The position numbers and the translations under genes are program-made. A stretch of DNA of 39,402 nt from a virus. Lineage: Duplodnaviria > Heunggongvirae > Uroviricota > Caudoviricetes. Each line of letters begins with the position of its first letter. The first letter of the stretch is position 1. Shown here one piece after another: positions 3,386 through 39,402 of this stretch. The notes under the pieces are model-generated. The model was given only the letters and a program-made list of their open reading frames with translations, had not been told where the DNA came from and did no database searches. The DNA lies in IMG/VR virus record IMGVR_UViG_2541047754_000004; one strand, 5' to 3'.

Positions 3386-4581
3386 GACTCCACCGTTATA
3401 ACGATATTTTCCGGGGTACAGGACGTAGATTCGTTGTATCTGATATCAATGTTTGATGACGACAAAGCCCCCGGGGATTTCCCAATCGTCAGTTCCTGAA
3501 TATCGTAATAGCGTGCATTCCCGCCACTCACCACGCCAAGATTCGCCGGTGAGTAAATGCGACTTAAAAGGACCGAATCACCAATCATCAGACTATTGAT
3601 ATAGTCGGAAATAGCCTGCTGGATCTGCTGCCCTATCTGTGAGGTATAACCCGTAAAAACTTTTAATTTAATCCGGGCGTAAACAGGCACATCACTGGAA
3701 CGCGAGAATTTGATTACATGGGGATTGCCGTATTTATCCGGAACCGTAACGGATGTTGTACCGTGAGTGGCTGTCCCCTGGCCTTTATTTCCTCTGATAG
3801 CCTGAGCAATATCCGTCACATCACCGCCATCCACAATTACAGCAACAGAGTGTGGCGGTAACCCGTTACCGTCCTCCGAACCAGTATCGTTTTCATAGAG
3901 TTTGTGGCGGGTTACACCGGTAACATTAGAAACAGCACCATCCAGTGCTTCAAATGGGGTTATTGATGGCAACGCAACACTTTGCGACTGGCGGATACGT
4001 AACTCCGCATCAGTTTCTGCTGGAGTGCCTACAGTAGCTGCAGCAGGATTGGTTACCGAAACCCAGCCACGGGTTGGCGTATTAATTTCAGTGATAGTTC
4101 CAGCCAGCGCCGCCACTGCACCACTGACAGAACATTTTGCGGTCACCATCACTGTACCATCCACGCCGACCACCACTGAAGCAGGCAAACGCCATATCAC
4201 ATTATTACTGTCTTTCACGCTGCCATTAATGATGGTTGTTCCGGCAGTTCCTGTAAGAAGCAAATCAACCGTAGAATTCGTCGCGCCTTTACGTGAAATA
4301 CCATTTATTTTCACGTTACTGGTCAGTGCAGCCCCATAGCCGGTTGCCGGTGAAAAACAGTTGTAGACAGTTATCGCCATATTATTGGCATCATGAATCG
4401 CCAGCGCCATCAGAGCCACCATCTGGCCGTCTTTGCTGTCCGGTTCGAGGTAGGCATCACTGCCATAAATCTGCTGAAAATAGCTAATCAGGGTGCTGAG
4501 TATCGTCTGATAATCAGGCGCACTGATCCCCTCCGCGGTTACCTTTGCAGATAAACCGAGAGAATCAAGGTTCAGAGCCAT
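3382..4581 (-). CDS. Baseplate J-like protein
   Basis: 399 aa; position and size match the baseplate J family in a V-W-J-I-H order. Confidence 0.8.
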   Translation of the reverse strand: MALNLDSLGLSAKVTAEGISAPDYQTILSTLISYFQQIYGSDAYLEPDSKDGQMVALMALAIHDANNMAITVYNCFSPATGYGAALTSNVKINGISRKGATNSTVDLLLTGTAGTTIINGSVKDSNNVIWRLPASVVVGVDGTVMVTAKCSVSGAVAALAGTITEINTPTRGWVSVTNPAAATVGTPAETDAELRIRQSQSVALPSITPFEALDGAVSNVTGVTRHKLYENDTGSEDGNGLPPHSVAVIVDGGDVTDIAQAIRGNKGQGTATHGTTSVTVPDKYGNPHVIKFSRSSDVPVYARIKLKVFTGYTSQIGQQIQQAISDYINSLMIGDSVLLSRIYSPANLGVVSGGNARYYDIQELTIGKSPGALSSSNIDIRYNESTSCTPENIVITVES

Positions 4582-6459: not shown

Positions 6460-7523
6460 GAATAAATCCTTTGCTGCGCTGAGGACGAAAGTAAATCCGC
6501 CGCGCCACGCGCTTCGCACATCATGTCCATGTACCACGCCTGGCCCCTTGTGTCACCAGTGTACATAATCCCGCGCACAATATAAACGCCATCCGTTGCG
6601 ATGCTGGCAGGCTGCGATGTGGTGCCGCTGAGCGTGATATTTCCGTCCGTGTTCTGGTCGGTGATCTGACCACCAGCCATCGCAATATCGTTGTTCGACA
6701 ACGCGGTACGATAGACGGAAGCCTGATCCAGCTGAATGAGCCCGTTAACCCGGATGTTCGGATTAATAAGCGCGCGGACGTTTACGCCGTTACCGATAGT
6801 CTGCTGCGGCATTCCAATAAGCCCGGTAGCGCTGTTGAGCACAATCGCTTCGTGAACATATTCGTTATTCGCCACCATCTGGCGCTGACCGTCCACGAAT
6901 TGCCATGTTGCGCCACATTGTCCGGCTACGTTATCCATTAGATGCCGCGTCATGCCAAAGAGTACCCGCCCCCGGGGGAATACAGTAGCAGGCATTTCAG
7001 GCGTCAGGCCTTCGGTCGCGCCTTTGGCTTCGAAGTCTTTCATCAGCGCACGGTTCACATCAGCGACCGTGTAACCGGCAGCCAGCGTCTGTGAGGTTAT
7101 ACTGGTAGCAAAAGCCAGATCAGTATCTGCTGCCTGAATCAGGACGTAGGTATCAACCGGACTGTCTTTTCCTGTGACCGAGTAGCGAATTTCACCGCTG
7201 AAAATCAGTCCGTAGTTGCGGCCATCACTCTGGCCCACGTCCGCCGCGTCAACTTCCCGCACTGTCCCGACGTCGCTTGCCGACACCTCCGGCGCGATAC
7301 CGTCGTAACCCGCAATCAGACGCACTTTCGAAAACTCCTGTCCGGTGATTCGGTTCACAGTATCTGCCGAGAGGTTATAAATTTTGATAGTCCCTACCCG
7401 GGATGCACTGCTGATGTTGAACCAGTCGATCGTAAAGGTAACTTTAAAATCACTTAGCTCAATTCCCTGACCGTTCCCGTCCACAAGCTGCAGCTCGAAA
7501 TGTCTCATCCAGTTCTGTGACAT
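6456..7523 (-). CDS. Baseplate hub protein (P2 gpD / late control D-like position)
   Basis: 355 aa; follows tape measure and two small tail genes as in P2-type tails. Confidence 0.7.
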   Translation of the reverse strand: MSQNWMRHFELQLVDGNGQGIELSDFKVTFTIDWFNISSASRVGTIKIYNLSADTVNRITGQEFSKVRLIAGYDGIAPEVSASDVGTVREVDAADVGQSDGRNYGLIFSGEIRYSVTGKDSPVDTYVLIQAADTDLAFATSITSQTLAAGYTVADVNRALMKDFEAKGATEGLTPEMPATVFPRGRVLFGMTRHLMDNVAGQCGATWQFVDGQRQMVANNEYVHEAIVLNSATGLIGMPQQTIGNGVNVRALINPNIRVNGLIQLDQASVYRTALSNNDIAMAGGQITDQNTDGNITLSGTTSQPASIATDGVYIVRGIMYTGDTRGQAWYMDMMCEARGAADLLSSSAQQRIYS

Positions 7524-7525
7524 GC

Positions 7526-7828
7526 TTACTCCGTTGATACCAGTAAATGGCTGCGACCGCCCAGGTCAGTTTTTGTGGGGTAATCCTGTGTGTTGTCATC
7601 ACAGACCACCACCAGCTTAAAACCAAGCCCCATACAGGCGTACTGCGCCAGCAGGTCGGCACCAGTGACGAGAGGAATACCGGAGATTACCGGCTCCCCT
7701 CTGTCGTTCTGCAGGTCCATAATCCAGTACAGATCGCGCCATATGATGCTAATCCGCCAGGTAACACCACCTAAGACGATGCTGAACTGCTGGTTGTCCG
7801 CTGTCAGCGGAATTTCCTGAATTGTCAT
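7526..7828 (-). CDS. Tail protein (gpX-like position)
   Basis: 100 aa ORF tightly packed in tail operon. Confidence 0.55.
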   Translation of the reverse strand: MTIQEIPLTADNQQFSIVLGGVTWRISIIWRDLYWIMDLQNDRGEPVISGIPLVTGADLLAQYACMGLGFKLVVVCDDNTQDYPTKTDLGGRSHLLVSTE

Positions 7829-8415
7829 TAGCCGCCCCCCAGTAATGACGCCACGTTACCCGTGATGCTTTTCAGCAGTGAAGTATCTGGAGGCTTTGTG
7901 GTTTTGTTGCCGCTATTCTGTACCGCCGACGTGCTGGCCCCTTCCTTCATGTTGGTTTTATCCGCGACGGTAATCTGCTGTGTCCGGGAGATAAGGACCT
8001 CCCTCAGGGTGAGGACGGCGGACAGGACGTTTTCGGTTGTCTTGTCCGTCGTCACTTCCAGCGCCCGGATCAACATGTTGCTGTACAGTCGTTTACCGGT
8101 TACCACATCGAAGGGGATACGGCTTTCCTGCAGATCCAGTAGCTCCTGATACGTCTGCTGAGGACTCAGGCCGAGCAGGCTGGTAGCCGTCAGATTACTG
8201 GCAAAATCCAGCAATGCGCCGCCACCGGCGAAACCAACCTCCATCACCACTTCTGACGGTTTTTTATAGGCATGATCAGCGACAGCGGCCCCAACCTCTA
8301 CCGGATGCTCTGTTATTTCAAGCATATCTGTATGCTTCTCTGAAATAACAACACTGGGAACAATCATTCCTATTTTTCTGCTCTGCTGATGAAAAAGTGT
8401 AGAGAGAATATCCAC
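7828..8415 (-). CDS. Tail protein (gpU-like position)
   Basis: 195 aa; start overlaps tape measure stop. Confidence 0.55.
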   Translation of the reverse strand: MDILSTLFHQQSRKIGMIVPSVVISEKHTDMLEITEHPVEVGAAVADHAYKKPSEVVMEVGFAGGGALLDFASNLTATSLLGLSPQQTYQELLDLQESRIPFDVVTGKRLYSNMLIRALEVTTDKTTENVLSAVLTLREVLISRTQQITVADKTNMKEGASTSAVQNSGNKTTKPPDTSLLKSITGNVASLLGGG

Positions 8416-10403
8416 TAACCCACCCTCACCTGATTACTTCGCATGACCTGAGCATTTGCAGACTGTTGCCGACGTGCAACCTCATTACCGACAGCGTGCG
8501 GATCTCCGCCACCGTAAATGTGGTAGGTATTTTGCTGGTTAACCTCTGTCACTTTGCCACTAATTCCCGCCACGGCAGCCTTATTAATCAGCTCTCGAGA
8601 ATAGATATTTCTTCCATTCTCATGCTGGATAATGCTGCTCATCAATGCTGACATGGTTTGCGGATCGCTCATATTCAGGGCAGCCCGGGGATCCACTCCC
8701 AGTCGTTGCGATACAGCCCTGATATACGCAGTTGTGTTGTTATTATCAGACGCAGGTGCCCAGGTAGAGATAATTTTCTCCACACTGTTTATTCCCCGTC
8801 CGGCGTACAGCATTAACTGACGAGCAAGAGCCCGTAATCCATCAAAGGCAGTTTCAAATCTGGCAAATCGCCCGCCCGGGCGTTCAAGAGAAGCCCCTGC
8901 CTGACCAGCAAAATTAAGGTTTCCCGGATTGTTATTCCGTTCTCCTCGTTTCGTAGCCTGTGCATGTTGTTCCGGCTCATCATCACCAAACCAGCCGCGT
9001 ACCGTCCGGCCCACACTGCGGGGATCAAATCCCCAGTGCTCTTTAATCCAGTCGGCAGTACTGTTAGCGCTGTCTGTAACCATCGGCATCGCTGACGGAT
9101 TTTCGCTGCCCTGATTAAGTATCTGTTTGCCGATGCTGACGGCATCAGCCCAGCGGCCATCTTTGATAGCGTTGAGCAGGTCGGCGATCATGTTCAGCAT
9201 TTTGCTGAATTCGCCCATCTGGTCGATGAAGTTGCTGAAATCCCACTTCAGGGACCATGATTTGGGGTCAATATTGAGCAGTTTCGCCAGCGCTTTCACC
9301 AGGTCGTTAACGGTCGTTTTAAGGTCACGAACCATCTTCAGCGCGGCATCAACCTCCGGTTTCCACTTGCCCCAGTCAATCAGGCTGTCGCCGCCTTCCT
9401 TCCAGGTCTGATAGTCCTCCCACAGGAGGGCAATCCCCGCCGCCAGCGCGGTAATGAGGCCAATCGGCGACATCCAGAACGTACTGTTCAGAATGCGCAG
9501 CGCAATCGTCAGTGCGCCAAACAGCGAGATCAACTCCCGCGTTTGCTTATCCAGCGATTGCCACCAGGTGATGAGGCCTGATGTCCCCTCAATCAGTCTG
9601 AAGAACAGCCGCCCGATAATATCCCCGAGCGCCAGAATGCCTTTTATGGCTTTCGTCAGGGTCTGCTCGATACGCGGGAAGTTGTCCAGGATATGGCGGC
9701 GCAGTGTGTCCAGCGAACCCGCAAGCCCACCCGCAAGATTAGAGCCGATTTTGTCACGGGCCATGCCTGCCATCGCGCCAAACTCACGCAGGGAGGTCAT
9801 AAATTTGTTGGAGCTTCTGGCCGCCTCGTCAGCATTGAAGCCGATAGCTTTCGCCATTGCGCTGTACTGCCCGGAGAAGCCACCCACACCGCGACGCATA
9901 GCCAACAGGGTATTTTCGTCAATGCCCAGCATCTGCGCATACTGGTTAGCACGGTAATACGGCATGTCGCTGAGCTTCTGGCCTACCCCTGTAAAAATAG
10001 CGGCCATGTCACGCATGTTACCGCTGGCATCCCGTGTCTGTACCCCCAGACGATTCAGAAATCCCTCCGCCCCGGGATTGTTACGAATAAACCGGGAGAG
10101 GCTTTCCAGAGAAGATCGCGCAGCGTCCACGCTGCCGCCAACCTGCGAAACCGCATAGCCAATAGACTGAATTCCCTGGACTGTCGCGCCGGTGCGCTGT
10201 GACGCCCAGTAAAGATTATCCAGGCCGGAGGCGATCTTAGCCGTGAAGGCCACCACGGACAGCGCAGCTCCTTCAACAGCCAGCCCCATTTTGATGACAT
10301 TTGCAGTTGTACCGGCGAGGACAGAACCGAACTTTTTCGCTCCTGCATCATCCACACTGAAGCCAAGCGAGACGAGGAAATCTTTAATAGTTTCAGCGTT
10401 CAT
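8415..10403 (-). CDS. Tail tape measure protein
   Basis: About 662 aa; alpha-helical, hydrophobic central segments; directly downstream of frameshifted chaperone; start taken at MNAETIK (GGAGAGAGG upstream), ORF track allows 10424. Confidence 0.85.
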   Translation of the reverse strand: MNAETIKDFLVSLGFSVDDAGAKKFGSVLAGTTANVIKMGLAVEGAALSVVAFTAKIASGLDNLYWASQRTGATVQGIQSIGYAVSQVGGSVDAARSSLESLSRFIRNNPGAEGFLNRLGVQTRDASGNMRDMAAIFTGVGQKLSDMPYYRANQYAQMLGIDENTLLAMRRGVGGFSGQYSAMAKAIGFNADEAARSSNKFMTSLREFGAMAGMARDKIGSNLAGGLAGSLDTLRRHILDNFPRIEQTLTKAIKGILALGDIIGRLFFRLIEGTSGLITWWQSLDKQTRELISLFGALTIALRILNSTFWMSPIGLITALAAGIALLWEDYQTWKEGGDSLIDWGKWKPEVDAALKMVRDLKTTVNDLVKALAKLLNIDPKSWSLKWDFSNFIDQMGEFSKMLNMIADLLNAIKDGRWADAVSIGKQILNQGSENPSAMPMVTDSANSTADWIKEHWGFDPRSVGRTVRGWFGDDEPEQHAQATKRGERNNNPGNLNFAGQAGASLERPGGRFARFETAFDGLRALARQLMLYAGRGINSVEKIISTWAPASDNNNTTAYIRAVSQRLGVDPRAALNMSDPQTMSALMSSIIQHENGRNIYSRELINKAAVAGISGKVTEVNQQNTYHIYGGGDPHAVGNEVARRQQSANAQVMRSNQVRVG

Positions 10404-31099: not shown

Positions 31100-31600
31100 T
31101 CATTGAATTGGGGGCTGTTTAGATTCCTGTTCCTCTTTCAATGAACGAACTTTGCTATCATATATCCTGAGTGCATATTCGTTAATTTGCCTAGTTAAAT
31201 CGGAATCTAGCTTATAATATTTTTCAGCCCACTCAATTAAATTCTTCCTCATTATTATCTTCGGTTCAATTTTATTAATTCTATTTAAATGCATATCACG
31301 ACCGCGTTCAAAATTAAGATATGCTTGTTCACTAACGCCCTGTCCATCGATTGTGTAGGTAGTACCACTTGCACGGAAAGAGAGATGAGTCTTTTTACCA
31401 GCATATCTTTCATTATGTATAGCTTTATCGGTATTCACTATTCGAAGCCATGTCCAAAACTCATCATTAAGAATGTATTTATCAATTATTTTTAATATTA
31501 AAAAATCTCTACCTATTAGTAATAGAGGCATCAAAAAATAAACCCCAAGAAAACTCAACGCCGCTGTAATAATAGTTGAAAAAGATATTGATAACTCCAT
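31100..31600 (-). CDS. Membrane-anchored hypothetical protein (cargo gene)
   Basis: About 166 aa from ATG at 31600 (GGAG upstream); one N-terminal TM helix; AT-rich; opposite strand to flanking replication genes. Confidence 0.6.
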
Positions 31601-31621
31601 TTTACTCTCCAAAGGTTAGAC

Positions 31622-33685
31622 ATGAACAATATACTATGGGGCGACCTGGAAACCTATTGCGAAATCCCGATTACGAACGGCACCCATGCGTATGCCGAAG
31701 GCGTTGAAGTGATGCTTTTCGCATGGGCTATCAACGACGGGCCAGTAAACGTGTGGGATATCACTGCCGGAGGTGGTATTCCACACGGCTTATACGAAGC
31801 AATCGCAGACCCTGAAACCCTGCTTTATTTCCATAACTCTCACTTCGACCGCACCGTTCTGCGTTATGCAATGCCGCGACTGGCACCGCCAGTCGAACGT
31901 TGGCGCGACACGATGGTGCAGGCGCTGGCGCACGGTCTCCCGGGGGCTCTGGGGGAACTCTGCGAAGTACTAGGCGTCCCGCAAGACAAAGCGAAGGACA
32001 AAGAAGGTAAAGCGCTGATCCAGCTGTTCTGTAAGCCACGCCCGAAAAACAGCAAACTGCGTCGGGCCACCAGTAAAACCCACCCGGAAGAATGGCGGCG
32101 CTTTGTTGCTTACGCCGGACTGGATATCGAGGCAATGCGCGAAGTCTATAAACGTCTGCCGAAGTGGAATTATCAGGGGACAGAACTGGCGCTCTGGCAT
32201 CGTGATCAGCAGATCAATGACCGGGGCGTCTGCATGGACATGCAACTCGCACGCGCTGCGATCGAAGCGGTAGACCAAGAACAAAAGCGCCTGGCAAAGC
32301 GTACACAGGAAATGACTGATGGCGAAGTGCAGGCAGCCACACAACGAGACGCGTTGATTAAGCACATTGTTGAATCCTACGGTGTGGAGCTACCAGACAT
32401 GCAACGCAGTACTCTGGAACGTCGTATTGCCGACCCCGATTTACCATCTGCCGTGAAAGAACTGCTGGCTATCCGCCTGCAAGCCAGTACTACCAGCACC
32501 AGTAAATACAAGGCACTGATGAAAGGCGTAAGCCACGACGGGCGCTTACGCGGTACGCTACAGTTCTGCGGGGCGTCACGTACCGGTCGTTGGGCCGGAC
32601 GGCTATTCCAGCCCCAGAACCTTCCCCGCCCTTCACTAAAACAGGAACAAATAGACGAAGGCATCGAAGCACTGAAAGCCGGATGTGCAGACCTGCTGTT
32701 TGACAATATCATGGAACTAACCAGTTCAGCGTTACGTGGCTGCATTATCGCGCCAACAGGCAAAAAACTGGTGGTAAGTGACTTGTCAAACATTGAAGGC
32801 CGTATGCTGGCATGGCTGGCGGGAGAGGAATGGAAACTGAATGCATTCAGAGAGTACGACGCCGGAACGGGTCCGGACTTATATAAACTGGCGTATGCAA
32901 AAGCTTTCGATATTGCACCAGATGATGTTGATAAACACATGCGTCAGATCGGTAAAGTCATGGAACTCGGTCTGGGTTATGGAGGTGGTGTAGCGGCTTT
33001 CATCACTTTTGCTCTGGTTTACGGTCTCGATCTCGACGAGCTGGCGAACGCCGCACTGCCAAACATTCCCCGCGATGTTATCCGCGAGGCGAAAAGCTGG
33101 TACGACGAATCGGTTAAACGCAAGTCAACCTACGGGCTTTCTGAACGGGTATTTATCGCCTGCGACTCACTTAAACGTCTCTGGCGCAGGGCGCACCCGG
33201 CGACCTGCGATTTCTGGTACGAACTGGAGCGCACCGTCCGCACAGCAATCGCCACACCGCAAAAAACATTGTATTGCGGCTATCTTAAAATCCGACGTGA
33301 TGGCGCGTGGCTGCGCATACAGCTACCATCCGGACGCGCTGTATGCTACCCGTCTCCGGTTATCGAAAAAGGGAATATCACCTACATGGGTGTTAACTCT
33401 TATTCGCGTAAATGGCAACGACTCAAAACCTACGGCGGAAAGCTGGTGGAGAACGTCACCCAGGCAGCCGCCCGCGACGTTCTGGCCGGAAACATGCCGC
33501 TTATCGAAGATGCCGGTTACAGTATTGTGTTGACGGTACACGACGAGGTGATCACCGAAGCACCTGACACAGAAGATTTCAACGATAAAGCGCTTTCCGC
33601 GCTTCTCTCCACTAACCCCGAATGGGCACCCGATATTCCGCTGAATGCTGGCGGCTTTGAGGCGTACCACTACCGTAAGGAGTAA
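31622..33685 (+). CDS. Family-A DNA polymerase with 3'-5' exonuclease domain
   Basis: 687 aa; exo motif WGDLETY, motif [17 protein letters not shown], motif C TVHDEV. Confidence 0.9.
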
Positions 33686-33692
33686 TACAAAG

Positions 33693-34721
33693 TCACTTAA
33701 AATCCCTAGATAACATCTGCGAAGCAGCTGATGCTGTATAAACTCCAGTATGTTTTATTTCTGCAGCTATTTTGTAGCCATCCTCCTTAAACTGCGTAAG
33801 CATTGAGCTTAAGGAACCAAGTTTTTTAGTATTCAACACCATTCTAACGACAGTTCCTTCATGATAATGACCTAACTCTATATGCTTCTTTCCGTGTTCA
33901 TCTAGATATATTGCATGGTCACCGCTACAAATAAGAAAACTACCGCCAAGTTTACATATACGGCTGATCATATAAAGGCCAAATCCCGAATTATGCCAAG
34001 GATTTCTTGTATTGATTCTCGCCCCCTTAAAATTTTTACTAGAAATAGATGGCATTAACGCTAACTGAATGGCTTCAGAATCATTATCAGCTTCTATATA
34101 AGGGTTCTTCGATAGAGATTTTTTCATTCCTATACCATTATCAGAAATTGTTATTTCAACACGGTCATAAGAAGGCCAATACTGTGCACAATATTCAATC
34201 ACCTTTGAATCACTATGTTCCACAACATTACGCATAATTTCCCTAATAGAAAATGTCAAAGCATCAATGAGGTCGCCTTCTTCTTGGCGAGCAAGAATCT
34301 TTGCTAATTTACCAGATCGTTCCTCAACTATCTCTTGCACCTCAGTATATTTATCGTTAGCTTCATCTATAACTGTTTGAACACGAAGAATTGTAAATGG
34401 AACAAAATTATTATTTCCATCTGTACATCCCGGTTCACGGCCATGCTTTAACCCGAAGGCTCGAAAGAATGCCATATTTGCGGCATAATCCTTATTCTCA
34501 TGCCCGCTACAAAAAAGTTTAAAACCATCAATGTTCTTTTTCTGTTTTCGATGGAAGTCTCGAATATGCTTAGCAACATAAACCATTGTAAATGGTTCAA
34601 TCCTTCCCATATGCGAAAAATCGATTGTTATTTGCTGTTGACCTGAATGTTTTTCAATTTCATTGCAAAAATTAAATATCTTTTCAGGATTACATGAAGA
34701 GGGAAATAAGATTCGTGACAT
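33693..34721 (-). CDS. GHKL (histidine-kinase-like) ATPase domain protein with unknown N-terminal domain (cargo gene)
   Basis: 342 aa; ATG at 34721 with AAGGA upstream; motifs RNVVEHS, ITISDNGIGM, NSGFGLYMISR; AT-rich; opposite strand. Confidence 0.7.
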   Translation of the reverse strand: MSRILFPSSCNPEKIFNFCNEIEKHSGQQQITIDFSHMGRIEPFTMVYVAKHIRDFHRKQKKNIDGFKLFCSGHENKDYAANMAFFRAFGLKHGREPGCTDGNNNFVPFTILRVQTVIDEANDKYTEVQEIVEERSGKLAKILARQEEGDLIDALTFSIREIMRNVVEHSDSKVIEYCAQYWPSYDRVEITISDNGIGMKKSLSKNPYIEADNDSEAIQLALMPSISSKNFKGARINTRNPWHNSGFGLYMISRICKLGGSFLICSGDHAIYLDEHGKKHIELGHYHEGTVVRMVLNTKKLGSLSSMLTQFKEDGYKIAAEIKHTGVYTASAASQMLSRDFK

Positions 34722-34781
34722 ATTAATTCCTTATACTTGTTTTATTTGATACTACCCAATAAGTGTTAACAAGGCAAATTT

Positions 34782-35069
34782 ATGTCTTATGAACGTGAGA
34801 GCCTTATCGAAAAGCACCTCGTCGCTGAAGTGAAAAAGGCTGGCGGTGTGGCCTTTAAGTTCGTATCTCCCGGTCGCCGCTCGGTACCGGATCGCATTGT
34901 TCTGCTACCCGGCGGCCGTCTTGTTTTCGTTGAATGCAAAGCACCCGGCAAAGCACCACGCGCCGACCAGTTGCGCGAGCACGAGCGGCTGCGCGAGCTG
35001 GGCTTTACCGTGGTGGTGCTGGATAGCAAAAATCTGGAGGAAATTATTTTAAGCCGCAATAAAAGATAA
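34782..35069 (+). CDS. VRR-NUC domain nuclease
   Basis: 95 aa; PDRIVL...FVECKAP (D...ExK). Confidence 0.8.
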   Translation: MSYERESLIEKHLVAEVKKAGGVAFKFVSPGRRSVPDRIVLLPGGRLVFVECKAPGKAPRADQLREHERLRELGFTVVVLDSKNLEEIILSRNKR

Positions 35070-35081
35070 AAGACTTATGCT

Positions 35082-35879
35082 TTAATCCGTATTTTTAACA
35101 CGTGTTTCGAAACACTCTTTTAATTTAGCTATTTCCTTTTTAGAGGACATGACTGTGAATTTCATCCCTTTTAAATCATTAACAAATTCAAATTTTGCGC
35201 TATTGGACTCACAATCACCAACAACAAAACCACTACCAAATGAATTGAGCAACACTTTAGTATTACTACCATCTACCATATAATATTCGTTATTTTTAAA
35301 TGCAGTAACCTTCCCGAAGGTATAGCTCAATATCAATAATGTCATCACCCCTAAAGGAAAAGCTGATTTTAGGATTTTTAAATCGATATAATAAAATACG
35401 TCTTTATACTCTGCAAGCCTCCCAAATTTTCTAATGCTATCCATATGATGTTCGTGTCTCTTACTATGGATTGACGCGGACACCGCATTGTGGTAATTCA
35501 ACAAAAGCAGAGCAAATAATAAAATATCTCCAACACTCATCACAGAGGTTTCGGAGAAATAACCAAAAGGCCAATGGAATCCTATTATGTAAAAATTAGG
35601 TATTAGCATAACCACTATAAATATAATAAATGGAACATAATATTTCCCTTTCAAATCAAACATCAATGTCGCGTATAAGGCACCGAGAAATAAAAAACTA
35701 AAAAACAAAAGCCATACAGCCGAATACAATAGCGTATTTAAATCTATTTTAATAAAAAGGGCTGGATAGCCATAATACGATGCAACACCTTTCTGAAAAG
35801 AATATGCCATCGCATAAGCTAACGCTGAAAAAACAGTTAATAAAGAAACTTGTTTTGTAAGTATTTTTGCCAGGGGCAT
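35082..35879 (-). CDS. Polytopic membrane protein with soluble C-terminal domain (cargo gene)
   Basis: 265 aa; ATG at 35879 with GGAGG upstream; several hydrophobic helices in first about 150 aa; AT-rich; opposite strand. Confidence 0.65.
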   Translation of the reverse strand: MPLAKILTKQVSLLTVFSALAYAMAYSFQKGVASYYGYPALFIKIDLNTLLYSAVWLLFFSFLFLGALYATLMFDLKGKYYVPFIIFIVVMLIPNFYIIGFHWPFGYFSETSVMSVGDILLFALLLLNYHNAVSASIHSKRHEHHMDSIRKFGRLAEYKDVFYYIDLKILKSAFPLGVMTLLILSYTFGKVTAFKNNEYYMVDGSNTKVLLNSFGSGFVVGDCESNSAKFEFVNDLKGMKFTVMSSKKEIAKLKECFETRVKNTD

Positions 35880-35941
35880 ACCCGCCTCCGTTAGTTATAT
35901 ATAGAGAGAGAATTGACACATATTCTACCATAGGTATATTA

Positions 35942-37336
35942 ATGAATAACATATTCCACCCCCGACTTTATCAAAACCTCATAATCAATCACCAAACCGA
36001 CATTCTGCGCGGCAACATCTGGGCAGGGATGGGGATGGGTAAAACCGTAGCGACACTCACCACGCTGGAAGATCTTTTCATGGCTGGAGCAGAAACACAC
36101 CCCGCGCTGGTCCTCGCGCCGCTACGCGTTGCAGCAAGCACCTGGCCTGATGAAGCTGTTAAATGGGGGCATCTGCGTAATATTGAGGTACAGCCGATCA
36201 TCGGTAACGCCAAAGCGCGCTCTACGGCGCTGGCGAACAGCAACGCGAGCGTGTTCACCATCAACTACGATAACCTTGTCTGGCTGGTTGAAGAATTGGG
36301 AGAACGATGGCCGTTCGGAACTGTCATTCCAGATGAAAGCACCCGGCTAAAATCCTTCCGGCTGCGAGGTGGTGGTAAGCGCGCGGCGGCGCTGGGCAAA
36401 GTGGCGCATAAGTATGTCCGGCGCTGGATAAATCTCACCGGTACGCCAGCACCGAACGGCCTGGTAGATTTGTGGGGACAATCGTGGTTTGTGGACCAAG
36501 GGCAACGTCTCGGGCGCACTTACGGCGCGTTTACCTCACGCTGGTTCAACTCGATACAGTTTCCGGGACAGAGCTGGACTAAACTGGAACCTTTTGCTCA
36601 CTCACAGGGTGAAATACAGCGAGCATTAGCCGATGTGACCCTCTCGCTGGATGCGGCCGACTGGTTCGATATCAAAGACCCCATCCATAACGTAATCCGC
36701 GTGGATATGCCCCCGAAGGCCCGTCAGCAGTATCGTGAAATGGAAAAGGAAATGTTCCTCGAGCTGAATAGCGAAGGCATCGAAGCACCGAACGCCGCGG
36801 CAAAGACACTGAAGTGTCTTCAAATCGCTAGTGGCGCAGTATACACAGACGACACCGGAAGTTGGTCAGAACTGCATGACACCAAACTACAGGCGCTGGA
36901 CAGCATACTGACCGAAGCAGCTGGCGCACCTGTGCTGGTTGCTTATCACTGGAAACACGATCTTGAACGCTTGCTTAAAGCATTCCCTCGCGGTCGTCAC
37001 CTCGACCAGGATCCACAGACACTGCGCGACTGGAATTCCGGAAAGATTCCTGTTCTCTTTGCACACCCAGCCAGCGCGGGCCACGGCCTGAACATGCAGG
37101 ACGGCGGAAATATACTGGTATTTTTCTCACACTGGTGGGACCTGGAGCAATATCAGCAAATTATTGAACGTATCGGCCCCACCAGGCAGATACAGGCCGG
37201 ACACAATCGTCCGGTATTTATTCACCACATTATTGCTGCCGACACTATGGACGAAATGGTGATGGAGCGGCGCAACTCAAAACGAACAGTGCAGGACATC
37301 CTGCTCGATGCCATGAAAAAGAGAGGTATAGCATGA
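35942..37336 (+). CDS. SNF2/DEAD-like superfamily-2 helicase
   Basis: About 464 aa from ATG at 35942; GMGMGKT (motif I), VIPDES (II), LTGTP (III), AGHGLN (VI); start uncertain (ORF track gives TTG at 35867). Confidence 0.82.
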   Translation: MNNIFHPRLYQNLIINHQTDILRGNIWAGMGMGKTVATLTTLEDLFMAGAETHPALVLAPLRVAASTWPDEAVKWGHLRNIEVQPIIGNAKARSTALANSNASVFTINYDNLVWLVEELGERWPFGTVIPDESTRLKSFRLRGGGKRAAALGKVAHKYVRRWINLTGTPAPNGLVDLWGQSWFVDQGQRLGRTYGAFTSRWFNSIQFPGQSWTKLEPFAHSQGEIQRALADVTLSLDAADWFDIKDPIHNVIRVDMPPKARQQYREMEKEMFLELNSEGIEAPNAAAKTLKCLQIASGAVYTDDTGSWSELHDTKLQALDSILTEAAGAPVLVAYHWKHDLERLLKAFPRGRHLDQDPQTLRDWNSGKIPVLFAHPASAGHGLNMQDGGNILVFFSHWWDLEQYQQIIERIGPTRQIQAGHNRPVFIHHIIAADTMDEMVMERRNSKRTVQDILLDAMKKRGIA

Positions 37337-37533
37337 GCGAGAAACCCGACGATTTACTCACCCCGGATGAAGTATGCCAAAAGTTAGGTATTACACAGAA
37401 AACGCTATGTGAGTGGAATATTAAGCATCGTCATCGGGCTATCCTGGCACCAATTCGTTTCAGTGCAAAAGTAGTTCGTTATGAGCGCCGAAATGTCGAC
37501 GCTTTTATTCAAAAATGTCGCAGCCAGTATTAA
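37333..37533 (+). CDS. AlpA/Xis-like small DNA-binding protein (putative excisionase)
   Basis: 66 aa; LTPDEVCQKLGITQKTLCEW HTH; ATGA coupled to helicase; adjacent to integrase. Confidence 0.7.
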   Translation: MSEKPDDLLTPDEVCQKLGITQKTLCEWNIKHRHRAILAPIRFSAKVVRYERRNVDAFIQKCRSQY

Positions 37534-38933
37534 CCTCGCCGCCGTAGCAATGCCACCTGCGCAAGTATGCTCCGCTCGTGAGCCTCGAAAGCTTCGCGCT
37601 TTAACGCAATCTCTTCCTGCAAAATCTCATCAGAAAAGTCGTAATGTTCTGCCATCGGGTCATCTGACTTGCTGGAGTGGTGAAGGCAAAGGAGGCTGAT
37701 TTCCCTTCGGTCTGATCGGGAATAGCCTCTTTCCTTCATCAAGGCAATAACATTGCTCTTAAGGAATTTACGGCACATCGTATTAAATGCACCGTCTTTC
37801 CCTTTAACAGTCCCATCATGTTTTATTCCTTTTACAGCCCCATCCGGGCTGTATGTTTTCACTAGCTTATCCAGTGATCGTTTTGAAAATGGCTGCATTG
37901 GATCACGCGGCTGCAAAAATACATAATCCCTGTTGCACTCAGGAACTGAATCACGCCAGGCTTTCTGCTCGTCGATAATCCGCCGGATCTCAGGCGTTAT
38001 CGGCAGGCGGAAAGCCTTTTGTGTTTTCATAGCCCCTCGCATGCCGATAACCCCTTCCGGATAAACAATTTCACCAGCCTCCTCGTGAACGTAGTCCCAG
38101 CGCAGGTTATGGACATTAATCGGACGAACACCAGTGATGATCATGAAGCGAACAGCATTCTTCTGGTGTACAGAGGTGCAGGCAGCAACATTGAGCCAGA
38201 GTCGGGCGATTGATTCAATATCGGTAAAAAGCCGTGTGGGGGTAGGTTTCTGTACGCGGGAGGAAACATAATCATCTGGCAGACTGGCGGCAACATTGCG
38301 GCCGTTGCAAAGAGTAGGTGCGCAGAACTTCCAGAACCGACGGAGCTCGGCAAACAACTCCAGGGCGTTATTGTTCGAGCGAGTGGCGATCCACTCGTCC
38401 AGCACTTCCACCAGCCGACTGTATGTTACGTCGCTGAACACCTCGCGCTCGCCGAACGTTGATTTAATCCGGTCGATACGCACCCCGTAGGTTGTGAAAC
38501 TGTCCGGGCTCAGCTTCTGACGGGCTACTTTGGCTTTGAGGTCATCCCGGTACATTTCCAGCGCTGCATGTACGGACTCTGCCCGCAGTCCACCGTCAGC
38601 CATACCTAGTGCTTTTTCGCGCGCCAGCTGGATAGCGAGCTCCGGCCACTCGCCGAGCTTTTTACCTTTGAGGCCCATCTTTTTTGGAAACTCGGCGTAA
38701 AATGTAACCTTACCGGCTTTGCTGAAATCGATACGGAGATAGTTCTCTTTTTCGTATTTGGAACGGCGAGCCACGCCGGAAGCAGCGAGGATGATTTTGG
38801 CGGCAGCAACACAGATTTTCATGTGTGCGCTGGTATAGGGGGGTTTACAGGCATCCCATTTTTCAGAAGCGGCTAAAACATCGTCATTATTGGGGCTATC
38901 CGGATTATGTGTTACAGTGCGCGGCATTCTCAA
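37530..38933 (-). CDS. Tyrosine integrase (phage integrase family)
   Basis: 467 aa; AAGGA upstream of ATG at 38933; C-terminal catalytic region with R...H..R...Y-type spacing; last phage gene before chromosomal yfhL. Confidence 0.85.
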   Translation of the reverse strand: MRMPRTVTHNPDSPNNDDVLAASEKWDACKPPYTSAHMKICVAAAKIILAASGVARRSKYEKENYLRIDFSKAGKVTFYAEFPKKMGLKGKKLGEWPELAIQLAREKALGMADGGLRAESVHAALEMYRDDLKAKVARQKLSPDSFTTYGVRIDRIKSTFGEREVFSDVTYSRLVEVLDEWIATRSNNNALELFAELRRFWKFCAPTLCNGRNVAASLPDDYVSSRVQKPTPTRLFTDIESIARLWLNVAACTSVHQKNAVRFMIITGVRPINVHNLRWDYVHEEAGEIVYPEGVIGMRGAMKTQKAFRLPITPEIRRIIDEQKAWRDSVPECNRDYVFLQPRDPMQPFSKRSLDKLVKTYSPDGAVKGIKHDGTVKGKDGAFNTMCRKFLKSNVIALMKERGYSRSDRREISLLCLHHSSKSDDPMAEHYDFSDEILQEEIALKREAFEAHERSILAQVALLRRRG

Positions 38934-39132
38934 TCCTTATCTGCGTAGGCGCAGAAAACAAGCTCACACATACAAGTCTTTTCTACGGGACAAAATGCAA
39001 TGTGTTGCGGTTTTGTGTTGCTGGACTGAGTTTATCAAGGTTAAATACACTGGATCAACATACAGTAAGTTAATGACAGTCAAGCATACAAACTCGATAC
39101 AACTTACTGATTTTAAAATGATTTAACGGTAA

Positions 39133-39402
<270 letters not shown>

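Follow-up and report, generated by a model that had tools for sequence, protein, structure and literature searches.

What can a single gene be doing when it lies antisense in the middle of a phage replication module, reading against the genes on either side of it? This question is raised by the window analyzed here, a 39,402-nucleotide stretch of DNA from a tailed virus (Caudoviricetes; IMG/VR record IMGVR_UViG_2541047754_000004), in which one such gene is flanked by PolA (31622-33685, +) and VRR-NUC (34782-35069, +). Its product, of 342 residues, appears in RefSeq only under the generic name "ATP-binding protein" (WP_021529153). The stop codons of the gene and of PolA are separated by 7 nt, and its start lies 60 nt from that of VRR-NUC. 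An AAGGA Shine-Dalgarno sequence is found 8 nt 5′ of the ATG, so that the initial annotation was right in describing an antisense reading frame with its own ribosome-binding site between the polymerase and the nuclease. The AT-richness that it had noticed was also borne out by calculation, with a G+C content of 0.361 (GC3 0.268) against 0.540 (GC3 0.562) in PolA, 0.538 in VRR-NUC and 0.531 in SNF2. Two further AT-rich antisense reading frames, both with a G+C content of 0.327, occupy positions 31100-31612 and 35082-35879 of the same module. The features of the gene and of its product are collected in Table 1.

Table 1. Features of the antisense gene, its product and its borders, in window coordinates.
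Feature	Position	Strand	Remarks
CDS, 342 aa, ATG start	33693..34721	-	ORF list; stand-alone STAS-GHKL kinase-like protein, PHROG 3364 family
STAS-like domain, residues 1-113	34383..34721	-	beta-alpha-beta-alpha-beta core, then conserved "Y..NMAFF.AFGL" helix
Arg40	34602..34604	-	hhalign register: aligned with VapK F54 / CapK W68, their ssDNA-stacking residue
Helical linker without conserved His, residues 114-149	34275..34382	-	AF2 helices 114-124, 128-144
GHKL (Bergerat) domain, probable SpoIIAB/RsbW class, residues 150-297	33831..34274	-	
N box REIMRNVVEHS (E161, N165, H169)	34212..34244	-	
G1 box DNGIG (D194, G196, G198)	34128..34142	-	
ATP-lid segment LMPSISSKN, with family-invariant P224 and Ser/Thr227	34032..34058	-	
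G2 box NSGFG (N244, G246, G248)	33978..33992	-	
Conserved C-terminal tail YTASAASQMLSRDF (S331, S334)	33699..33740	-	candidate cis-substrate or docking motif
Divergent intergenic region, 60 nt	34722..34781	.	RBS and weak sigma-70-like candidate TTGCCT-17-TAGTAT (by eye, 8/12 matches)
Left cargo junction: PolA stop codon and 7-nt spacer	33683..33692	.	alignment of four prophage variants

The comparison of related E. coli prophages, that is, genomes with the same backbone, demonstrated, as had been proposed, that the gene was gained horizontally as cargo (a "moron") and is not a core replication gene, and that, of the three variable slots in a PolA-type replication operon, it fills one. It was present in the slot in 8 of 162 such prophages, which is the opposite of a gene found in essentially all PolA modules. 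Elsewhere, the position between PolA and the nuclease was taken by TIR, DUF4406, methyltransferase, YfbU or Ant genes, and it was empty in strain B379, while the neighboring slots of the prophage family carried SIR2 and DUF6338 genes. When four of the prophage variants were aligned, they were collinear as far as the PolA stop codon and diverged directly after it. The locus thus combines a variable slot between conserved genes, a sharp junction, a deviant composition and the opposite strand, which are the marks of moron or hotspot cargo. Since it runs antisense to the lytic operon, the gene is probably expressed in the lysogen. A promoter within the 60-nt upstream gap is plausible, although a consensus promoter scan of that region returned no site above threshold.

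Concerning the protein itself, an AF2 model (pLDDT 77, pTM 0.79) and fold comparison resolved the N-terminal part of about 140 residues, previously described as unlike anything recognized, into a STAS-like fold over the first 113 or so. PDB sequence searches with the whole protein and with an N-domain profile gave no useful match. The Bergerat motifs listed earlier (RNVVEHS, ITISDNGIGM and NSGFGLYMISR) hold up as N, G1 and G2 boxes in the correct order and, together with the Bergerat fold and a Pfam HATPase_c match of 32.5 bits (cut-off 26.4; E 1.3e-7; residues 155-295), place the second domain in the GHKL superfamily. Among 149 cluster representatives, the ATP-binding motifs are found in 148; the N-box residues E161, N165 and H169 are kept in 146, 148 and 148, respectively, and the G1 box in 148, the one left being a gap. 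Residue 227 is Ser in 137 and Thr in 11, which accounts for all 148 non-gap representatives; the surrounding loop 225-248, the ATP lid, was modeled by AF2 with low confidence. The GHKL fold is nearest to that of true anti-sigma factors and Ser-kinases, with a Pfam HATPase_c_2 score under its cut-off, and rather than an "ATPase" the domain is probably a Ser-kinase-like one of the SpoIIAB/RsbW class.

A histidine-kinase identity was considered and rejected on account of this fold and of the lack of a DHp domain or phosphoacceptor His and of a response regulator. In fact, Pfam and NCBIfam searches found no HisKA/DHp domain in the protein, no invariant His occurs within residues 114-149 in homologue alignments A1 or A3, and no response regulator was found in the module of the window or recurring beside homologues; the lack of a phosphoacceptor domain and of a nearby response regulator agrees with what had been noted before. 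The description of the protein as a "lone sensor-less GHKL ATPase" is correct as to "lone" but needs amending as to "sensor-less", given its STAS-like N-domain and the collinearity of the whole protein with VapK and CapK. Profile searches recognized no effector domain in the protein, and no transducer or DNA-gate domain was found in it. The C-terminal tail, predicted by AF2 to be disordered or weakly helical (pLDDT about 35), is invariant in alignment A1, and among non-gap representatives position 334 is Ser or Thr in 117 of 118 and S331 is kept in 103 of 121. A resemblance of its segment SQMLSRDF to clamp-binding or PIP motifs was considered but not retained.

The order of a STAS domain followed by a GHKL kinase is that of VapK, from the vapKSC toxin-antitoxin defence system (Chambers et al., EMBO J 2026, PMC13373217), and it forms the core of CapK, the ssDNA-activated kinase of capKS, which lifts the repression of CBASS, Bub or Thoeris operons (PMC13373217). 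In both kinases, the STAS-GHKL groove is the ssDNA sensor, and the substitutions W68A in CapK and F54A in VapK abolish function (PMC13373217). Both are pure sensors that require CapS, or VapS and VapC, respectively; capS follows 443 of 443 capK genes and vapK is found "reproducibly" in vapKSC (PMC13373217).

In hhalign, the 342-residue protein matched VapK at 97.5% (E 5.5e-12) over 232 columns covering both domains (29-289 versus 41-285). An HMM alignment paired residues 145-288 with 144-284; HMM-to-sequence significance was confined to the GHKL half, and the STAS domains were aligned by profile methods alone. The two proteins lack an HTH and are collinear nearly residue for residue, and they share a "C-x-Q-aromatic-aromatic" hairpin ahead of G1 as well as a Pro three residues past the ssDNA-stacking position. 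Additionally, VapK and the present family both occur close to defence genes. On the other hand, identity to VapK is 19%, for which reason the protein was assigned to a separate family, and the stacking position is Phe (F54) in VapK and Arg40 here. Arg is found in the protein and its close clade, whereas across the 149 representatives this column contains W (35), F (32), H (16), R (13), Y (8) and T (7), being aromatic (W/F/Y/H) in 91 of 134. The alignment with VapK, for which residues 1-286 were compared, stops at the end of the GHKL domain, beyond which the 342-residue protein has an extra C-terminal helix of about 45 residues and the conserved Ser-bearing tail. Moreover, neither a VapS (STAS antitoxin) nor a VapC (PIN toxin) gene adjoins the locus, and the 25 most frequent Pfam families of 131 homologue neighbors included neither a STAS nor a PIN family.

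The likeness to CapK is weaker (8.3 bits by HMM), and the hhalign match (93.7%) covers only residues 133-262. The STAS-GHKL core is shared, helix alpha-3 ("Y..MGFF" versus "NYLNRLGFF") and the N and G1 boxes are aligned, and the catalytic Asn is N165 in the 342-residue protein and N218 in CapK. However, CapK has an N-terminal HTH, whereas the present protein begins at STAS beta-1 without one, and the capS gene and usual immune operon that come after capK are both missing beside the gene; at the sequence level, no CapS-like or second STAS reading frame was found in the window. Taken at the level of profiles, these comparisons identify the STAS-GHKL family as a remote homologue of VapK and CapK.

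Other known systems offer more partial parallels. SpoIIAB and RsbW, with their STAS antagonists SpoIIAA and RsbV, constitute partner-switching modules, yet no sigma factor or phosphatase gene lies near the locus, and an operon with a separate STAS antagonist and target sigma factor was found neither in the window nor at 87 homologue loci. Across representatives, the residue that opens STAS helix alpha-2, canonically the phospho-Ser, varies (G in 73, A in 23, S in 17 and T in 6). In PADLOC-DB v2.0.0, no model was matched over the full length, and the sole partial match joined residues 66-223 to positions 65-207 of the DrmA model PDLC02567 (E 2.9e-8), collinear from the N-terminus. This model, of whose 1750 positions about 8% were matched, describes a variant of the DISARM helicase that is much extended at its N-terminus, the helicase/DUF1998 part being missing from the 342-residue protein. 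Staphylococcus Stk2 and PD-T4-6 are kinase-based single-gene defences of the Hanks type, whose fold is unrelated to GHKL. VcSduA is a GHKL-DUF4263 Shedu protein with a MORC-like GHKL domain and a nuclease effector (PMC12137116). What these three have in common with the present protein is a single-gene format with a GHKL ATPase or a protein kinase as regulatory or active module; their PADLOC models did not match it.

The family to which the protein belongs, matched over its full length by phrog_3364 (E 2.5e-33), comprises 1716 clusters at 50% identity, of which 336 are conserved full-length at E<1e-30, and it was present in 182 of about 100,000 species representatives. There are 552 full-length homologues with 63-75% identity, around 120 positions are invariant across genera, and a dN/dS of about 0.045 demonstrates that the gene is under purifying selection. 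No paper on the PHROG 3364 family was found by accession, PHROG identifier or domain terms, and the integron-defence papers checked make no mention of it.

It was also verified that the gene is autonomous and has no dedicated partner. Systematic neighbor clustering returned no family-wide partner gene, 76 of 89 tight co-directional neighbors of homologues being singletons, and in relatives at least 50% identical with intact flanks, each of the two flanking gaps measures 54 nt or more (at least 62 nt in genome-scan loci) and no neighbor is common to them. A Serratia copy ends 4 nt from a convergent PolA gene, in the same arrangement as in the window. A family member forms a single-gene, VCR-flanked integron cassette in V. 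cholerae, and another is carried on a 6.8-kb Acinetobacter plasmid together with Rep and BrnTA. Three candidate partners were discarded. The 265-aa membrane protein encoded at 35082-35879, which has a 27%-identical homologue in the same slot of a Serratia prophage, is regarded as independent because it co-occurs with TIR in place of the GHKL gene and is missing from non-prophage contexts; the 268-aa gene downstream in Shewanella and the 272-aa gene upstream in Phaeobacter show no relation to one another or to the window reading frame.

Beyond prophages, the company kept by the gene includes defence systems. Individual loci have Zorya and a methylase nearby, or Abi_2, DndB and ParE, or Mrr, CAP12-TIR and HsdR. 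In a semi-quantitative, uncontrolled tally, the 131 neighbors at 46 unbiased loci included DruE, DrmA, DpdF, PsyrT, RT-TIR and PD-T7-1, as well as PDC-S36 (three times), PDC-S66, methyltransferases, TIR and HipA. These contexts, namely the integron cassette, the small plasmid and the Zorya, restriction-modification, Mrr, TIR, Dpt and Abi_2 islands, fit a single-gene conflict or defence factor, and such surroundings in diverse bacteria suggest that the gene is a new stand-alone anti-phage factor. From context, we infer a role in defence, abortive infection or exclusion. The favored explanation, which we consider to be about evenly poised between right and wrong, is that the prophage acquired horizontally a lysogen-expressed sensor kinase, remotely related to VapK and CapK, that acts in phage defence. 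For this protein, we infer kinase activity, an ssDNA trigger and a target, and the sequence of events may be as follows. The trigger would be a sign of infection, most probably ssDNA arising when phages replicate or DNA is damaged, and it would bind in the STAS-GHKL groove and activate the kinase, which would then phosphorylate a target encoded elsewhere than next door. This target could be part of the kinase itself, either the tail (S331/S334) or the lid (S227), or else a conserved protein of host or phage, perhaps one associated with RNA polymerase, and phosphorylation would block or abort infection by competing phages.

A stronger form of this explanation, to be held tentatively and with more doubt than belief, is that a partner-less, single-chain kinase of the CapK/VapK type constitutes a complete one-gene defence, which senses and acts directly to arrest infection. 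The kinase might act on its own Ser tail or lid to switch state or, alternatively, on a strongly conserved component of host or phage, for which the RNA polymerase machinery is one candidate. A target of the latter kind may be hinted at by relatives, since RNAP-binding Tudor-like modules are fused in at least 10 family representatives and SSB-tail-like acidic tips occur in 5 of 149. The protein would then be a self-contained partner-switching module repurposed for immunity and spread via prophage hotspots, integron cassettes and small plasmids.

Unlikely, but the best survivor among the competing explanations, is that the protein is a sensor or regulator kinase with no defence activity of its own, which senses DNA damage or ssDNA as CapK does and then phosphorylates an unlinked STAS or other protein and thereby tunes other defences, a toxin or prophage induction. 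CapK and VapK are themselves pure sensors, and the 342-residue protein has no recognizable effector domain. Additionally, the family occupies the positions of a regulatory module in some lineages, being translationally coupled to defence-type SF2 helicases at the loci of four relatives and lying inside a 5-gene operon in some sub-lineages, to which the likeness to the DrmA N-terminus can be added. However, capK and vapK are linked to their partners, whereas this family has no conserved neighbor, and the prophage encodes no CapS-like or second STAS protein at the sequence level. The single-gene integron cassette and the 6.8-kb plasmid are also hard to square with a kinase that would need one particular partner, encoded elsewhere, in a wide range of genera.

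Distinctly improbable is a protein that serves the phage or the mobile element, either as an anti-sigma-like or RNAP-directed factor that helps to take over transcription or as a counter-defence decoy that sequesters the ssDNA signal or disturbs host signaling of the CapK/VapK type. The nearness of the GHKL domain to true anti-sigma factors, the RNAP-binding Tudor-like domains of some relatives and the occurrence of the gene in prophages, plasmids and a Coprococcus phage would all be consistent with it. Nevertheless, the AT-richness of the gene and its orientation against the lytic operon are those of lysogeny-expressed morons, and the slot is filled by TIR proteins in other prophages and adjoins one with a SIR2 protein, both host-protective types of cargo. 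Furthermore, chromosomal defence islands retain the gene undamaged where the phage sequence around it has degenerated, as in the dptFGH island of E. coli ET490, where it lies next to a decayed VRR-NUC fragment, and sequenced phage genomes seldom carry it (5 of 50,697 records, with no enterobacterial one among the five).

A role in PolA-module replication, core or accessory, for instance as a MutL- or GyrB-like GHKL ATPase acting on DNA, is effectively refuted by slot occupancy, since about 95% of related prophages lack the gene, among them a backbone without any insert, and its opposite strand, foreign composition, lack of a transducer or DNA-gate domain and mostly non-phage relatives also speak against it. 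A functionless, decaying orphan fragment of a two-component histidine kinase, as generic annotations ("sensor histidine kinase", "ATP-binding protein") and weak NCBIfam matches to NarQ, UhpB and DesK-type kinases might suggest, is refuted by the conservation data (the low dN/dS, the invariant positions, the 336 full-length clusters and the intact catalytic motifs), the fold moreover being nearest to Ser-kinases and not to His-kinases.

CapK and VapK established in 2026 that STAS-GHKL kinases make ssDNA an immune signal, always through a STAS substrate of their own and an operon or toxin acting downstream. The present family keeps this sensor-kinase core but lacks a dedicated partner, and it travels as a lone gene on the principal carriers by which defence genes are exchanged. 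No description of the three PolA-type prophage cargo slots, which hold TIR and SIR2 genes and two uncharacterized membrane proteins, was found in the literature searched. If the protein is protective alone, these slots would represent a defence hotspot of this E. coli prophage family, and a compact system of 1 kb would show how one kinase can act as both sensor and effector in bacterial immunity.

It was verified that the antisense 342-aa ORF with its own ribosome-binding site, which the initial annotation placed between the family-A DNA polymerase (PolA) and VRR-NUC genes, is real, and its visible AT-richness was borne out by a G+C content of 0.361 (GC3 0.268) versus 0.540 for PolA (GC3 0.562) and 0.538 for VRR-NUC. 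The Bergerat-fold motifs read from the protein are also present (N box REIMRNVVEHS, G1 box DNGIG and G2 box NSGFG), and Pfam HATPase_c was matched at 32.5 bits against a curated cut-off of 26.4. As claimed, neither a HisKA/DHp domain nor a response regulator was found in the protein or in the neighbouring genes. Modelling with AlphaFold2 from 40 homologs (pLDDT 77, pTM 0.79) divided the protein into the domains listed in the table, the first being a STAS-like fold. The entire window constitutes a prophage end, and the prophage-host junction is marked at 37530-39402 by the integrase and, after it, a 4Fe-4S ferredoxin-like ORF of the host, cut off by the end of the window.

Features of the window and of the 342-aa protein, and relatives bearing additional C-terminal modules
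Feature	Position or members	Strand	Details
STAS-GHKL gene	33693-34721	-	ORF, ATG start, 342 aa
AAGGA ribosome-binding site of STAS-GHKL gene	8 nt upstream	-	from sequence
PolA gene	31622-33685		flanks the STAS-GHKL gene, which is antisense
VRR-NUC gene	34782-35069		flanks the STAS-GHKL gene, which is antisense
Virion genes	1 to ~26.6 kb	-	
Early and replication genes	beyond virion genes	+	
Tyrosine integrase gene	37530-38933	-	467 aa
170-aa antisense ORF	31100-31612	-	G+C 0.327; hydrophobic N-terminus; DUF2815-PolA slot
265-aa antisense ORF	35082-35879	-	G+C 0.327; several hydrophobic segments; VRR-NUC-SNF2 slot
SNF2 helicase	35867-37336	+	mechanical ORF, TTG start; overlaps start of 265-aa antisense ORF
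N-terminal alpha/beta domain	residues 1-113		AlphaFold2 model
Helical linker	residues 114-149		AlphaFold2 model
GHKL domain	residues 150-297		AlphaFold2 model
C-terminal helix and low-confidence tail	beyond residue 297		AlphaFold2 model
Relatives with C-terminal Tudor-like modules, several with acidic tips	P0137, P0142, P0165, P0167, P0168, P0182, P0183, P0212, P0213, P0225, P0253; also P0131, P0218		

A previous study described two immune kinases of related design (Chambers et al., EMBO J 2026, PMC13373217). CapK, an HTH-STAS-GHKL protein, is activated by ~20-nt ssDNA held between STAS and GHKL and phosphorylates the STAS-wHTH repressor CapS, de-repressing CBASS, Bub and Thoeris operons, while the STAS-GHKL protein VapK phosphorylates the STAS antitoxin VapS and frees the PIN toxin VapC; mutation of VapK F54 or CapK W68 abolishes ssDNA activation (PMC13373217). 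The CapK sequence and VapK residues 1-286, taken from the supplementary files of that study, were compared with the STAS-GHKL family. The family HMM was collinear with the GHKL half of VapK (145-288 against 144-284, 22.9 bits) and matched CapK weakly, and hhalign with a diverse 49-sequence alignment covered both VapK domains (columns 29-289 against 41-285; 97.5% probability, E 5.5e-12) and, for CapK, the stretch from the STAS 'Y..MGFF' helix through the G1 box (93.7%). The protein is thus homologous in architecture to ssDNA-activated immune kinases, and its earlier description as sensor-less was wrong. Judged from these alignments, it is a remote relative of VapK and CapK and a member of neither family, since it lacks the HTH of CapK, is only 19% identical to VapK and is accompanied by none of the partner genes that define both systems. 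The VapK alignment, which covered VapK residues 1-286, stops before the C-terminal helix and tail. VcSduA is a GHKL-containing defence of different architecture (PMC12137116).

In the hhalign register, the VapK F54/CapK W68 column is occupied by Arg40. Among 149 cluster representatives this column holds W35, F32, H16, R13, Y8 and T7, and 68% of its non-gap residues are aromatic, which supports a conserved role in ligand contact and is not decisive for the Arg-bearing clade of the 342-aa protein. N165, H169, D194, G196, G198 and P43 are invariant, gapped fragments aside, and the ATP-lid Ser/Thr227 is found in 148/148 representatives; in the tail motif AS.AS.ML..DF, Ser/Thr334 is kept in 117/118 and S331 in 103/121. 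Among the 149, the canonical phospho-site of STAS domains, located where helix alpha-2 begins, lacks conservation, which means that the internal STAS domain does not serve as the substrate; the same holds for CapK and VapK. Between two E. coli alleles dN/dS is ~0.045 (dN 0.042, dS 0.94). The single gene is under strong purifying selection, and the nucleotide-binding motifs of its STAS-GHKL product are intact.

The protein belongs to a large family whose members nearly always have ~340 aa. A database clustered at 90% contains 552 matches, with identities of 63-75% in Serratia, Morganella, Pantoea, Vibrio, Shewanella, Aeromonas, Pseudomonas and others, and at the 50% identity level there are 1716 clusters, including 336 with E<1e-30. 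One 53%-identical homolog (P0121, 699 aa) carries a 360-aa N-terminal extension without a Pfam match. The 342-aa protein has a full-length match in PHROG 3364 (function unknown). Of the PADLOC v2 defence models, only one DrmA model is matched, by a short stretch that is collinear with its N-terminus, and literature searches found no paper on the family. At least 10 relatives bear a C-terminal Tudor-like domain; all 10 tested match the RNAP-binding PcrA/UvrD Tudor family and 7 of them also match CarD/TRCF RID, one score being above cut-off and the others sub-threshold. Additionally, SSB-tail-like acidic tips (DDDLPF, PEDLPF, FDDIPL, DEEIPF and DDTEYPF) end 5 of the 149 representatives. These modules, seen in relatives and not in the 342-aa protein, hint at ssDNA/SSB biology, the SSB interactome and RNA polymerase.

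The view that the gene is acquired cargo was upheld by its distribution. Of 5426 complete E. coli genomes, 162 have the prophage backbone and only 11 the gene, with eight copies at least 99.8% identical in the PolA-nuclease slot and three, 85.8% identical, located elsewhere. Other strains fill this slot with a TIR protein, DUF4406, SAM methyltransferase, YfbU, BRO-N/Ant or DUF7446; strain B379 has nothing there but the backbone gene for an ANR regulator, and TUM1880 carries SIR2, TIR and DUF6338 across the three variable slots. In the alignment, prophage variants are collinear as far as the PolA stop codon and then diverge at once. The small ANR-family regulator lies between PolA and nuclease in most related prophages (L003:4060-4275; L002:6711-6932) and is absent at 33686-34781 of the window and from MINF_2E, indicating that the GHKL cargo either took the place of this backbone gene or displaced it. 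In E. coli ET490 (L100:8999-10288), an 86%-identical allele occupies a tRNA-Thr integrative island next to dptFGH, still flanked by a frameshifted VRR-NUC fragment, with IS remnants and two pairs of unknown genes nearby; evidently, it left a PolA-type prophage and stayed intact as its phage neighbour decayed.

The other two slots of the operon hold AT-rich antisense ORFs of 170 and 265 aa, neither with a family match. In related prophages the DUF2815-PolA slot contains SIR2, Nmad5 plus a hypothetical, or other hypotheticals, and in Serratia a Band_7 protein. The 265-aa gene, which may be an independent membrane-protein moron, is present in E. coli FDAARGOS_1059 alongside TIR in place of the GHKL gene; the VRR-NUC-SNF2 slot holds a 27%-identical homolog in the Serratia prophage and DUF6338 in TUM1880. 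Since the RefSeq homolog of the SNF2 helicase has 464 aa, its start is likely the ATG at 35942 (MNNIFHP...), leaving a ~62-nt divergent gap to the 265-aa ORF, comparable to the 60-nt GHKL/VRR-NUC gap.

A scan of one genome per species detected relatives in 182 of ~100,000 species, and 80 loci were fetched. The gene travels as cargo between prophage hotspots, integron cassettes, plasmids and defence islands. It occupies the same slot in a related Serratia prophage, adjoins Zorya genes and a DNA methylase in Shewanella and is close to Abi_2, DndB and ParE in Pseudomonas; in Plesiomonas it is found together with Mrr, CAP12-TIR and HsdR in an island bounded by integrase, and in A. baumannii its companions on a 6.8-kb plasmid are Rep and BrnTA. 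In V. cholerae (L014:2734-4166), the homolog is the sole gene of a superintegron cassette between VCR repeats, a diverged copy at ~2734-2777 and a 90% copy at 4032-4166 overlapping the stop codon. When the two genes on either side were surveyed with PADLOC and Pfam (131 neighbours, 46 loci), strong PADLOC matches included DruE, DrmA, DpdF (two), PsyrT (two), RT-TIR, PD-T7-1, PDC-S36 (three), PDC-S66 (two), PDC-M22B and type II/III methyltransferases, and Pfam matches included TIR (two), HipA (two) and resolvases (four). This is clearly defence-island company, in a semi-quantitative count made without a matched control.

The description of a lone GHKL protein was likewise supported. ORF calling and clustering of neighbours at the fetched loci found no family-wide partner gene, and 76/89 tightly adjacent co-directional neighbours were singletons. 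Where the flanks are intact, relatives of 50% identity or more have no neighbour in common, and 54 nt or more separate the gene from the next one on either side (at least 62 nt in genome-scan loci); the exceptions in spacing are the Serratia copy, whose end is 4 nt from the convergent PolA gene, and the window copy, 7 nt from PolA. In four Beta-/Alphaproteobacteria (L061, L075, L076, L098; gene ~7186-8954), a 1-4 nt overlap translationally couples the gene to a defence-type SF2 DEAD-box helicase gene (called ORFs 477-910 aa; resembling SngC, BrxH, DpdF and PsyrT), an arrangement reminiscent of the way in which the window protein partly matches the N-terminal end of DrmA model PDLC02567. In roseobacters (L088-L091, ~4.7-11.4 kb), a conserved operon encodes a 389-aa unknown, a 652-aa AAA+ ATPase, the homolog (33% identity), DUF6638 (466 aa) and a 222-aa protein; the DUF6638 gene is common to 4/4, the AAA+ and other flanking genes occur in 3/4 and are missing from L090, and the operon may be a multi-gene system built on the same sensor module. 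At two loci, an upstream 272-aa protein resembles HEPN_RES_NTD1.

Taken as a whole, the analysis makes a defence role plausible, and the following chain is proposed with moderate confidence. In the lysogen, transcription of the gene would run antisense to that of the lytic operon; a signal of infection, with ssDNA the likeliest candidate, would bind the STAS-GHKL groove and switch on the kinase. The kinase would then phosphorylate either conserved Ser residues of its own (S227 in the lid; S331/S334 in the tail) or a conserved protein of host or phage, so that competing phages would be excluded or infection aborted. The main weakness of this mechanism is the absent effector, and the principal alternative is that the protein does no more than sense or regulate, by way of unlinked components. 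A phage-serving role, as anti-sigma or counter-defence, is less likely, since the strand and composition of the gene, its slot-mates and its persistence in chromosomal islands count against it. A replication role and a pseudogene reading are effectively excluded. The STAS-GHKL protein is classed as a putative CapK/VapK-type kinase without a partner, and it may represent, in a tentative reading that is less likely than not, a self-contained one-gene sensor-effector kinase for immunity.
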